From sequence record OQ626344: DNA of 64,000 bases. One strand, 5' to 3'. Positions 24,096-24,551 of this stretch are shown piece by piece. The number at the start of each line of letters is the position of its first letter. Position 1 is the first letter of the stretch. The stretch comes from Escherichia phage S127 BCL3. The position numbers and the translations under genes are program-made. The notes beneath the pieces were generated by a model. That model searched no databases. It saw nothing but the letters and a program-made list of their open reading frames with translations, and was not told where the DNA came from.

Positions 24096-24127
24096 TTGAC
24101 AGCGGCCCCGCCAGGTGGCACAATATA
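24096..24127 (+). promoter_or_regulatory. rightward sigma70-like promoter P1, antisense to the flanking genes
   Basis: TTGACA (24096-24101) with CACAAT or CAATAT 17-19 nt downstream. Confidence 0.5.
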
Positions 24128-24141
24128 CCTATCGAAAGGAC

Positions 24142-24188
24142 GGCAGGCACCGGTGACGGGGGAGACAACCACCGGGGATGGGCGCTGC
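24142..24188 (+). repeat. hairpin motif copy A (core GGGAGACAACCACCGG)
   Basis: CCGGTG/CACCGG 6-bp stem around ACGGGGGAGACAAC; outer GCAGGC/GC(G)CUGC pairing. Confidence 0.7.
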
Positions 24189-24195
24189 ATAAAAT

Positions 24196-24214
24196 GAGAA
24201 CGGTTATCATTATC
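24196..24214. promoter_or_regulatory. Fur-box-like site A
   Basis: The reverse complement GATAATGATAACCGTTCTC matches 16/19 of the classical Fur box GATAATGATAATCATTATC. Confidence 0.5.
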
Positions 24215-24239
24215 ATTTAAAAATTTATGCAAAAAATCC

Positions 24240-24270
24240 TTGCTTTCTTTGTCCTGTGTGATACTATAAT
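24240..24270 (+). promoter_or_regulatory. rightward sigma70-like promoter P2
   Basis: Perfect TATAAT (24265-24270); TTGCTT lies 19 nt upstream, which is a sub-optimal spacing. Confidence 0.45.
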
Positions 24271-24278
24271 AACAAGCC

Positions 24279-24318
24279 GGGGCAACAGGGGCCGGGAGAC
24301 AATCACCGGGGGTGCCCG
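24279..24318 (+). repeat. hairpin motif copy B (core GGGAGACAATCACCGG)
   Basis: GGGCAAC/GGTGCCC outer stem (one mismatch); CCGG/CCGG inner stem. Confidence 0.65.
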
Positions 24319-24333
24319 TTATTCTGCAAACGA

Positions 24334-24348
24334 GAATGATTATCATTC
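24334..24348. promoter_or_regulatory. Fur-box-like perfect palindrome B
   Basis: GAATGAT-T-ATCATTC is a perfect 7-1-7 palindrome. It contains AATGAT-n-ATCATT, the central 13 bp of the Fur consensus. Confidence 0.55.
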
Positions 24349-24551
24349 AAAATTCTAAATGAGAACTTTTCGCATTTCATAAATTTAGTTAGCATGCTAA
24401 TTACCTACCGTGACAATTCTATATAAAATAATACCTCCTTAAATATTTCCATATACAAATTTTAAAAATCCATTTCCGAAAACGAAAAATCGATTTCGTC
24501 CCCAAAAATTTCAGGTCGAGCTCCGGAACGATTTCCAGAAAATCTGATTCA

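Follow-up and report, generated by a model that had tools for sequence, protein, structure and literature searches.

A conserved non-coding locus of rV5-like phages with tandem promoters, G-rich leaders and predicted Fur-type boxes

Between two leftward operons in the 64,000-nucleotide stretch of Escherichia phage S127 BCL3 that was analysed here (sequence record OQ626344; hereafter the window), promoters face rightward into DNA without a gene to express, and the question is what such a locus could be for. Positions 24041-24376 were found to hold three rightward sigma70-like promoters (P0, P1 and P2), two copies of a G-rich leader and three Fur-type palindromes. The comparisons described below support the view that this is a real non-coding regulatory module, under purifying selection, that is opposed to the flanking leftward operons. 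With regard to its function we tentatively favour an early promoter/operator module, non-coding and conserved among rV5-like phages, in which the host Fur protein would gate rightward transcription into candidate origin repeats.

Judged by its matches, the whole stretch is an rV5-like coliphage of the genus Vequintavirus, since the best matches of the locus are to phages B9-1 and rV5: the surrounding 1.6 kb matched 121 phage records, with Escherichia phage B9-1 at the top (98.4%) and rV5 at 90.7%. An earlier note made from the sequence alone (the original prediction) had described a gap of about 0.9 kb without open reading frames (ORFs) between the leftward units. The gap is there; its size is about 1.2 kb (23738-24952, between the leftward genes at 23540-23737 and 24953-25282), and it contains only short, inconsistently annotated ORFs. 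Its right border is formed by an intrinsic terminator that ends the right-hand operon, and a leftward promoter at 23817-23790 belongs to the left-hand operon. All features listed in the original prediction were present, with coordinates within 1 base, and the unit of about 135 bp that it had described as repeated twice has a measured spacing of 134-136 bp. The features of the gap are as follows.

24041-24053, plus strand: first copy of the 13-bp repeat GGCCCCGCCAGGT, adjoining the -35 hexamer of P0
24053-24081, plus strand: promoter P0, TTGCAA-17-TAGAAT (9 of 12 consensus positions matched), not in the original prediction
24096-24124, plus strand: promoter P1, TTGACA-17-CACAAT with a TG extension (10 of 12 consensus positions matched)
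24104-24116, plus strand: second copy of the 13-bp repeat GGCCCCGCCAGGT, inside the P1 spacer
24143-24188, plus strand: leader/hairpin 1, with its core GGGAGACAACCACCGG at 24160-24175; a diverged, Vequintavirus-specific duplicate
24193-24217, no strand: predicted Fur-type box 1, with the overlapping registers AATGAGAACGGTTATCATT and GAGAACGGTTATCATTATC
24240-24270, plus strand: promoter P2, -35 TTGCTT at 24240-24245, -10 TACTAT at 24262-24267 (preceded by TGn) overlapping TATAAT at 24265-24270
24280-24317, plus strand: leader/hairpin 2, with its core GGGAGACAATCACCGG at 24294-24309; the ancestral copy
24320-24350, no strand: predicted Fur-type box 2, AACGAGAATGATTATCATT at 24329-24347, extended by the flanking hexamers TATTCT/GCAAAC
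24358-24376, no strand: predicted Fur-type box 3, AATGAGAACTTTTCGCATT, 29 bp after box 2, not in the original prediction
24465-24645, no strand: three iteron-like direct repeats of about 47-55 nt with a spacing of 65-74 bp, two of which end in GATCGAGTAC
24890-24926, minus strand: leftward intrinsic terminator (inverted repeat I24, AAGGAGGA...TCCTCCTT, with a minus-strand T-run behind it)

The claim that neither an ORF nor a Shine-Dalgarno (SD) sequence follows the promoters was borne out. A minus-strand ORF over both hairpins is annotated in rV5, HdK5 and JEP1 and not in B9-1, pangalan, nomo, Alma and navn. Phage Alma carries a 1-nt insertion inside hairpin 2 that disrupts the ORFs on both strands, and the element differs between genera by indels of 1-4 nt that are not multiples of three (e.g. 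GAGAC-AA versus GAGTACAAAA), so that no frame is conserved on either strand; an SD sequence was absent before every candidate start in the locus. On these grounds a protein-coding function (of rV5 ORF198 on the minus strand or of a 43-codon ORF on the plus strand) was rejected. In the record of Klebsiella phage vB_Kpn_K45PH128C2, tRNA-Ile and tRNA-Met are annotated opposite a homologous promoter, leader and Fur box (unit B; positions 1420-1573 of our locus L003). These annotations look wrong because ARAGORN finds no transfer RNA (tRNA) in that locus; it found no tRNA or transfer-messenger RNA in the window either, and a tRNA or tRNA pseudogene was likewise rejected.

The locus is strongly conserved. 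In an alignment of ten Vequintavirus genomes, positions 24050-24400 showed 93-100% identity, as high as the flanking genes, and identity falls on either side, to 52-88% at 23750-24050 (where there is also a 48-bp indel), to 80% at 24400-24450 and to 64-80% at 24600-24800. The P0 region is 96-97% conserved in the ten genomes, P2 and leader 2 are almost invariant and box 2 is identical in all ten. Unit 2 (promoter, leader and palindrome) was also found in Seunavirus (PVP-SE1, GAP31), Mydovirus (Mydo and Klebsiella phages), Certrevirus (CB7), Henunavirus (Hena1) and Phapecoctavirus of the separate subfamily Stephanstirmvirinae (ESCO5, anhysbys). In these other genera the slot of unit 1 is occupied by a different element of about 95 nt, Unit A, with a small rightward gene before it; unit 1 is taken to be a Vequintavirus-specific duplication because Unit A, which the window lacks, fills its slot elsewhere. 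Similar sequences were absent from 5,426 E. coli genomes, and the leader-plus-box pattern did not occur in 185,579 species of bacteria and archaea, each represented by one genome; mimicry of a host sequence was rejected on this basis. A scan of IMG/VR with the 16-mer leader core was uninformative, because the number of matches (>120) is to be read against an estimated 100 or so expected by chance for 15 specified bases.

The two rightward promoters of the original prediction (TTGACA at 24096 and TTGCTT...TATAAT at 24240-24270) were confirmed, with the -10 hexamer of P2 better read as TACTAT. The spacer between TTGCTT and TATAAT is 19 nt, which is why that pair was missing from our promoter scan, and TTGCTT-16-TACTAT is better spaced and has TGn before the -10. 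The hexamer TACTAT also aligns with the -10 of the relatives, where its distance to the leader is fixed in all genera (5-9 nt from -10 to leader in all copies). On the leftward strand a weak promoter, ATGAAA-17-TAGAAT, coincides in part with boxes 2 and 3; it is not conserved in PVP-SE1.

The 13-bp repeat said to flank P1 was found as described, with its first copy at 24041 instead of 24042, and the looser motif CCNGCCAGG occurs eight times in the window versus 1.3 expected. The 12-mer GGCCCCGCCAGG occurs three times (16706, 24041 and 24104), with related sites at 14891, 23864, 24030 and 18593. Copies of the CCNGCCAGG type lie in the spacers of two TTGACA promoters (24096 and 14905), and spacers bearing CCTGG were also seen in promoters of the relatives. 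The GGCCCCGCCAGG/CCNGCCAGG motif may be the binding site of an unknown regulator; a mimic of a clustered regularly interspaced short palindromic repeat (CRISPR) was rejected, as GGCCCCGCCAGG is no more than loosely like the E. coli I-E repeat. At window position 24029, seven of nine aligned relatives have a 48-bp insertion (GCCYACCAGGTTTRCAAG...CAGTTAGGT) similar to the P0 region, and the upstream part of the locus therefore consists of repeated promoter-like modules.

The reading of the palindromes as Fur-type boxes is, in our judgement, the strongest part of the finding. Register GAGAACGGTTATCATTATC of box 1 (24196-24214) matches the E. coli Fur consensus GATAATGATAATCATTATC at 16 of 19 positions, and box 2, in our own alignment, at 15 of 19 (24332-24350). 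Box 1 is the sole site in the window within three mismatches of GATAATGATWATCATTATC (0.02 expected), and the 9-1-9 form occurs at five sites versus 0.02 expected, namely at 24193, 24329 and 24358 and twice near 12.2 kb; in the 7-1-7 form the boxes read TGAGAAT-n-ATTATCA. The Fur-box-like palindromes of the original prediction, the first at 24196-24214 and the second now placed at 24329-24347, are therefore far beyond chance. The phage 9-1-9 palindrome AATGAGAATnATTCTCATT, which is perfect in relatives as AATGAGAATGATTCTCATT, is identical to the Fur consensus determined by experiment for Xanthomonas, AATGAgAATcATTctCATT. The 15-bp core of the palindrome coincides with the Fur boxes TGAGAATGATTCTCA of E. 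faecalis iron-transport operons, and the FUR sites listed for A. baumannii include closely similar strings. Substitutions among the relatives shift toward the Fur consensus (e.g. GGTTATC to GATTATC) rather than preserve RNA pairing. In our reading, the conserved hexamers TATTCT and GCAAAT between leader and palindrome may extend the site in the Fur-hexamer register.

The arrangement of the boxes is regular as well. An exact spacing of 29 bp is shared by the window, Mydo and the four boxes of ESCO5, and over about 138 kb (the window and the rest of rV5) the boxes with at most three mismatches cluster in two ORF-free regions only, 24193-24376 and 12117-12269, with two isolated weaker matches elsewhere. 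Box centres lie at about +72 from the predicted P1 start and at about -73, +61 and +90 from that of P2. The perfect palindrome AATGAGAATNATTCTCATT was found in at least 120 IMG/VR viral contigs where chance would give an estimated two or so, and 18 of the 79 palindrome contigs examined have a further box within 200 bp. Such a spread over unrelated phages suggests that the binding factor is a conserved protein of the host and not one specific to a phage. Among the IMG/VR loci (L186-L264), L255 has three perfect palindromes at 30-bp spacing (1810-1888).

The leaders are recognisable mainly by their sequence. The core 16-mer GGGAGACAAYCACCGG occurs exactly three times in the window (24160 on the plus strand, 24294 on the plus strand and 14939 on the minus strand), where about 1e-4 occurrences are expected per 64 kb, and the sharing of the core by hairpins 1 and 2 and a third copy at 14928-14974 is thereby confirmed. 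A profile search of the 138 kb gave exactly these three copies. The third stands in the following context.

14928-15010, minus strand: copy 3, consisting of a promoter, TTGTAA-16-TATACT (15010-14983), and leader/hairpin 3 (14974-14928)
14877-14905, minus strand: a further leftward promoter downstream of copy 3, TTGACA-17-TAACAT (spacer containing CCTGCCAGG), that would drive the gene at 14550-14822

The promoter of copy 3 lies 8 nt before its leader; a terminator is found upstream, and the second promoter and its gene downstream. A second, inverted leader copy with its own -10 box is also present 7-9 kb away in Mydovirus-like and Henunavirus-like contigs and matches copy 3 of the window. A covariance model built from the other genera only recovered copy 2 (45.2 bits, E = 1e-8) and copy 3 (25.2 bits, E = 0.0014), matched copy 1 locally in the core only (16.6 bits, E = 0.22) and gave no further match in the 138 kb. 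The conserved primary sequence is GGAG(A/U)ACAAnCACCG followed by UGCCYGYYAUUCUG, and the constraint on the leader appears to be mainly on this primary sequence. The loop core, which the original prediction had called invariant, is not kept in other genera, where the variants GGAGUACAAAACACCG, GCGAGACAAACACCG and GGAGGAAAGYCACCG occur.

It had further been proposed that the leader is a structured non-coding RNA, in which the stems differ between copies while pairing is kept. Pairing potential is indeed found in every copy, as each can fold into an outer helix and an inner (C)CGG/CCG(G) stem; the covariation lacks statistical support. Against composition-matched shuffles the folding z-scores in the sense direction were -2.8 for copy 1, +0.57 for copy 2 and -3.9 for copy 3. 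Some relatives, like copies 1 and 3, fold significantly better than shuffles (-2.6 to -3.9), most lie between -1 and +1, and 13 of 18 copies lie between -2 and +1. Copy 2, the best conserved, folds no better than shuffled sequence; antisense strands gave z-scores similar to those of the sense strands, without asymmetry. RNAalifold gave no consensus structure on either alignment. In a hand-drawn structure for 13 diverse copies the outer helix was 86% paired, and 75.6% of all cells paired versus 30-54% when the partner was slid. Its covariation was not above that of shuffles (the score was reached by 102 of 500), with only two of twelve pairs changing on both sides and a single outer pair in which A-U is exchanged for G-C. 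Copies of the PVP-SE1 type have a shifted inner stem or none, and the stem of unit 1 has uncompensated G>A changes in relatives. A structured RNA with an invariant loop and covarying stems is thus not what these tests indicate, and a conserved hairpin with covariation is only weakly supported.

The statement that the motif cannot be assigned to a known RNA holds: an Rfam search gave no match at gathering thresholds in the window, only chance-level matches at E up to 10 in 23700-25000, and none in four relatives. A terminator scan found none at the hairpins, whose tails (GUUAUUCU, AUAAAAUG and AUAUAAAA; CUAUUCU or UCAUUCA in relatives) form no consistent U-tract on either strand, and no rightward terminator follows the hairpins to define a discrete small RNA. 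No target with a complementarity to the core of at least 13 of 16 positions was found in the window. An RfaH ops site was also considered and rejected (the relative L016 reads GGCGGTAG and the window GGCAACAG, compared by eye with the consensus), as was a pseudo-ToxI anti-defence RNA like that of the related phage phiTE.

Compared with the window leader, Unit A is the more promising structured-RNA candidate. This conserved element has its own promoter, immediately precedes unit B in Seunavirus, Mydovirus and Phapecoctavirus (GAAGAGGAAaCGCCACCCCACGGCGaAAAGGCGGGGCUAAC...GGAAGGUGGAUCGCCGGUAG) and contains an ACCNGG/CCNGGU hairpin with a loop of varying length and preserved pairing; it has no Rfam match. 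Its positions are:

L005 1030-1135, L003 1310-1420 and L007 1075-1170: Unit A in three of our relative loci

Downstream of box 3 the G+C content drops to 0.32-0.34, versus 0.435 for the window, and in this AT-rich segment, downstream of P0, P1 and P2, lie the three direct repeats, as would be looked for in a replication origin. Three homologous repeats of 67 bp are present in PVP-SE1 and Mydo, and ESCO5 has different repeats at the equivalent place; such a replacement in Phapecoctavirus would be as for iterons that co-evolve with their initiator. From these sequence features we infer promoter firing, Fur binding and a role of the repeat region in the following scheme. Host sigma70 polymerase would initiate at the tandem rightward promoters P0, P1 and P2, against the flanking leftward operons, and the P1 and P2 transcripts would start with the conserved G-rich leader of about 45 nt, able to form an imperfect hairpin. 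The polymerase would next cross the Fur-type operators (near +72 counted from P1 and near +61 and +90 counted from P2) and would proceed without an ORF into the AT-rich stretch with its three direct repeats at 65-74 bp. Host Fe2+-Fur on the boxes would gate this non-coding transcription, either blocking it or being displaced by it, and would thereby make the activity of the repeats depend on iron status in the infected cell. Most naturally, the repeat region would be a candidate transcription-activated replication origin, or else another DNA-handling site. A transcription-primed origin and a site for a host factor had both been suggested in the original prediction, and both remain live options; a role in the early-to-middle switch in particular, also suggested there, is not supported by any of the observations.

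Several observations weigh against Fur gating of transcription into an origin. The boxes do not overlap the -35, the -10 or the +1 of P1 or P2, and a roadblock at +60 to +90 would be unusual for Fur. Copy 3 has a promoter and leader without a Fur box and heads protein-coding genes, from which it follows that the leader would have a role of its own outside the Fur-gating model. DnaA boxes are absent from the locus and GATC sites are there at the genome average, so that origin marks of this kind (DnaA boxes or GATC clustering) were rejected. No initiator gene adjoins the locus and the neighbouring proteins have no known domains. There is a skew step at the locus, with a sign opposite to that expected of an origin, and the authors of the rV5 genome reported no skew inflection here and skew changes only where the direction of transcription changes. 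Literature searches found no transcriptome of rV5-like phages.

Fur-type boxes also recur in a second ORF-free region of the window.

12117-12269, no strand: second cluster of predicted Fur-type boxes, four in number (12117, 12135, 12233 and 12251), from the box scan

This cluster lies in a large ORF-free region (11100-13700) where rightward and leftward genes converge, equivalent to the ORF-free stretch described in the rV5 paper (rV5 104013-106618, about 11360-13970 of the window). The string CCTGAAGAG occurs five times between 10806 and 12005 (seven in the window in total versus 0.6 expected), and TGTTTACGC three times in the 11100-13700 region. rV5 was reported as circularly permuted. For Klebsiella phage KPP-1, a Mydovirus (MT438396), a terminal repeat of 514 bp has been published (L176 1017-1530); it is the counterpart of the 11-13.7 kb region and holds Fur-like boxes (e.g. 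CGAATGAGAATAATTATTATTTC and GAAATGAGAATCATTCCGC), and Fur-type boxes would therefore stand at the physical genome end of a relative. A physical genome end at the locus itself was rejected, since the few GenBank records that start nearby are, by our estimate, about as many as expected by chance, and the one measured terminal repeat, that of KPP-1, falls in the second ORF-free region.

Several large contigs with the perfect palindrome turned out to be Tequintavirus genomes. In the T5-like phage chee24 (NC_047885; L302 1724-2290) the palindrome is in the left terminal repeat, within its untranslated part, where the order is GC hairpin GGGGGCGCAACTACCAGGGAGTGCCCCC, perfect palindrome 8 nt later, paired DnaA boxes and about six more Fur-type boxes (palindrome and boxes at L302 1760-2290). 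An exact 29-mer, TAAATGCGAATCATTATCATTTGCATTTC, is common to the arrays of chee24 and of the Phapecoctavirus ESCO5 (L007, position 1357). We rejected the idea that the T5-like hairpin and the rV5 leader are homologous, as the pairwise similarity was marginal and the covariance model gave no match. In a preprint by Davison (bioRxiv 10.1101/866236), the untranslated Repeat Region 3 of T5 is linked to the injection stop signal; a search of the text for 'Fur' and 'ferric' indicates that DnaA boxes and palindromes are discussed there, and not Fur sites. It could be, although we think it rather improbable, that Fur-box arrays with a preceding GC-rich hairpin form a shared class of untranslated boundary or control regions in large virulent phages of enterobacteria from at least three lineages (T5-like Demerecviridae, Vequintavirinae and Stephanstirmvirinae), with the T5 region binding host Fur and the rV5 locus as its functional analogue. 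If so, the rV5 locus, which is separated from the other cluster by about 12.3 kb or 9% of the genome, would delimit a block of small early genes, and iron status would act through Fur on an early step, be it DNA entry or processing, origin firing or the release of the next gene class.

Other explanations of the locus share part of this evidence. One of them, which we consider unlikely, is that P1 and P2 belong to stand-alone small RNA genes that produce short stable RNAs active through the hairpin loop GAGACAAYCA, either as cis-antisense regulators of leftward read-through or in trans as small RNAs or protein sponges, with the boxes being separate or setting the 3' end. A promoter directly upstream of each copy in constant relative orientation, the conserved core, the ability of all copies to fold (with the outer helix 86% paired in 13 copies versus 30-54% in slid controls) and the z-scores of -2.6 to -3.9 of copies 1 and 3 and some relatives would all fit. 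The hairpin, however, has neither terminator nor consistent U-tract, the z-scores of copy 2 (+0.57) and of most relatives (-1 to +1) and the lack of sense/antisense asymmetry speak against it, as do the negative RNAalifold result, covariation not above shuffles, the shifted or lost inner stem of PVP-SE1-type copies and the lack of a target with at least 13 of 16 complementary positions in the window. Equally doubtful to us is a landing pad for host factors at the DNA level, where box arrays, the GC-rich inverted repeat and the direct repeats would organise the phage DNA for entry, end handling, packaging or replication, as in the T5 terminal-repeat region, and the promoters would be secondary. 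It would account for the T5-like arrangement of GC hairpin, perfect palindrome and about six boxes near paired DnaA boxes in the region of the injection stop signal, for the exact 29-mer of ESCO5 and chee24, for the boxes in the KPP-1 terminal repeat and in the homologous convergent region of the window, and for the exact 29-bp box spacing in three genera. Yet the promoter elements are conserved as well as the boxes and at exact spacing to the leader, the rV5 hairpin family was not detected in T5-like loci (where similarity outside the box is marginal), the locus does not coincide with the KPP-1 terminal repeat, and rV5 itself is reported as circularly permuted.

A cis-acting RNA leader, protecting the 5' end or making the polymerase termination-resistant (as HK022 put or lambda nut do) for the crossing of long untranslated DNA, seems quite improbable. 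Its strictly promoter-proximal place, a few nt from the predicted start, the two divergent loci 7-9 kb apart in Vequintavirus and Mydovirus-like genomes (as with putL/putR and nutL/nutR) and the fact that both loci fire toward ORF-poor DNA would suit such a leader, as would the sequence GACAA within the loop, which we take to be the P22 boxB pentaloop. This is countered by the lack of a supported conserved secondary structure, by a closing pair of GACAA that is not conserved (variants AAU, AAC and AAA), by the failure to identify an N-like or Q-like protein and by the situation of P2, which has no downstream genes and no mapped terminators before the convergent leftward terminator at 24890-24926. 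Finally, the locus could be an ordinary feature that was misread (a protein gene, a degenerate tRNA, an intrinsic terminator or a leftward Fur-repressed small RNA). The minus-strand ORF annotated in rV5, HdK5 and JEP1, the tRNA-Met and tRNA-Ile of the Klebsiella record and the weak leftward promoter over boxes 2 and 3 are all that would speak for it, and we find it hardly credible given the frames broken by the Alma insertion and the 1-4-nt indels, the missing SD, the empty ARAGORN and Rfam results, the absence of a consistent U-tract on either strand and the non-conservation of the leftward promoter in PVP-SE1. The last two grounds led us to reject both a terminator of the intrinsic type and a leftward small RNA that is repressed by Fur and ends at the hairpin.

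The surroundings of the locus deserve a brief description. The neighbouring proteins belong to PHROG families of unknown function and have no Pfam domains. Over window positions 23000-27000 the GC skew is about -0.03 to -0.05 to the left of the locus and -0.16 to -0.22 to the right, and the AT skew about -0.20 to the left and about 0 to the right, with genes leftward on both sides; this shift suggests that two different gene classes or transcription units meet at the locus. On the minus strand at 23821-23985 there is a 33-codon ORF (MAGALEHKEEYEKMMVNLAGATAGEFCPKNNSN) with an upstream in-frame extension that lacks a start codon, and small ORFs of differing length are annotated here in rV5 and several relatives. 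It may be a decaying or mis-started small gene, and conservation within the gap is lowest here (52% identity at 23925-23950).

With Fur-type boxes beside strong early promoters in conserved non-coding DNA, the locus would give a known type of operator a new setting in strictly virulent phages, and the same palindromes are seen in three further places, the second ORF-free region, the Mydovirus terminal repeat and the untranslated terminal-repeat region of T5-like phages. The conservation of the module across distant virulent phages suggests that the phage may read the iron status of its host. If host Fur binds, virulent phages used in typing or therapy (rV5, PVP-SE1, phi92/phAPEC8 relatives and T5 relatives) would sense or exploit that status. 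Because iron supply limits growth both in the gut and in infected tissue, such a reading would bear on phage efficacy in vivo. Two questions are touched, where replication of rV5-like phages starts and what the T5 repeat region does. In the searchable literature we found no mapped origin in rV5-like phages, no Fur boxes in lytic phages or T5 and no description of this promoter/Fur-box module.

Known systems resemble the locus in part. Transcription-activated or RNA-primed phage origins include the T7 primary origin (tandem promoters and an AT-rich region), oriF and oriG of T4 and the lambda origin with PR. The window likewise has tandem strong promoters that would fire into an AT-rich, repeat-bearing and ORF-free segment, with a G-rich transcript start; unlike these origins it has no adjoining initiator gene or DnaA boxes, and its repeats are of about 67 bp, not iterons of about 20 bp. 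The antitermination leader RNAs putL/putR of HK022 and nutL/nutR of lambdoid phages are, like the rV5 leader, conserved and promoter-proximal, with two divergent copies per genome, whereas the rV5 leader has no supported structure or covariation, has one copy without downstream genes, and was not linked to an identified cognate protein or terminators. The function of the untranslated region in the T5 terminal repeat has been debated for decades. T5 Repeat Region 3 is, like the ORF-free DNA of rV5-like phages, large, conserved and repeat-rich with convergent genes at its borders, and in T5-like chee24 a GC hairpin is followed by AATTCTCA, a perfect Fur-type palindrome and a box array. The T5 region differs in lying inside a 10-kb terminal repeat and in having paired DnaA boxes, neither of which applies to the window locus, and the rV5 leader family was not detected in T5-like DNA by the covariance model.

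The closest parallel for the boxes themselves is in bacteria, where Fur boxes are textbook operators. The phage boxes resemble these in their matches to the consensus (16/19 and 15/19) and are clustered as at strongly Fur-regulated promoters. They differ in that they are predicted sites in a virulent phage and do not precede iron-uptake genes, that they lie at +60 to +90 or -74 from the promoters instead of over the -35 and -10, and that they are 29 bp apart, whereas the bacterial ones overlap by 6 bp. A host Fur site on phage DNA has a precedent in the fur box upstream of sitABCD on temperate lambdoid coliphages (PMC6969025). Those sites, however, are ordinary operators before iron/manganese cargo genes in prophages, whereas the boxes described here belong to strictly virulent phages, stand in non-coding control regions and have no gene to control.

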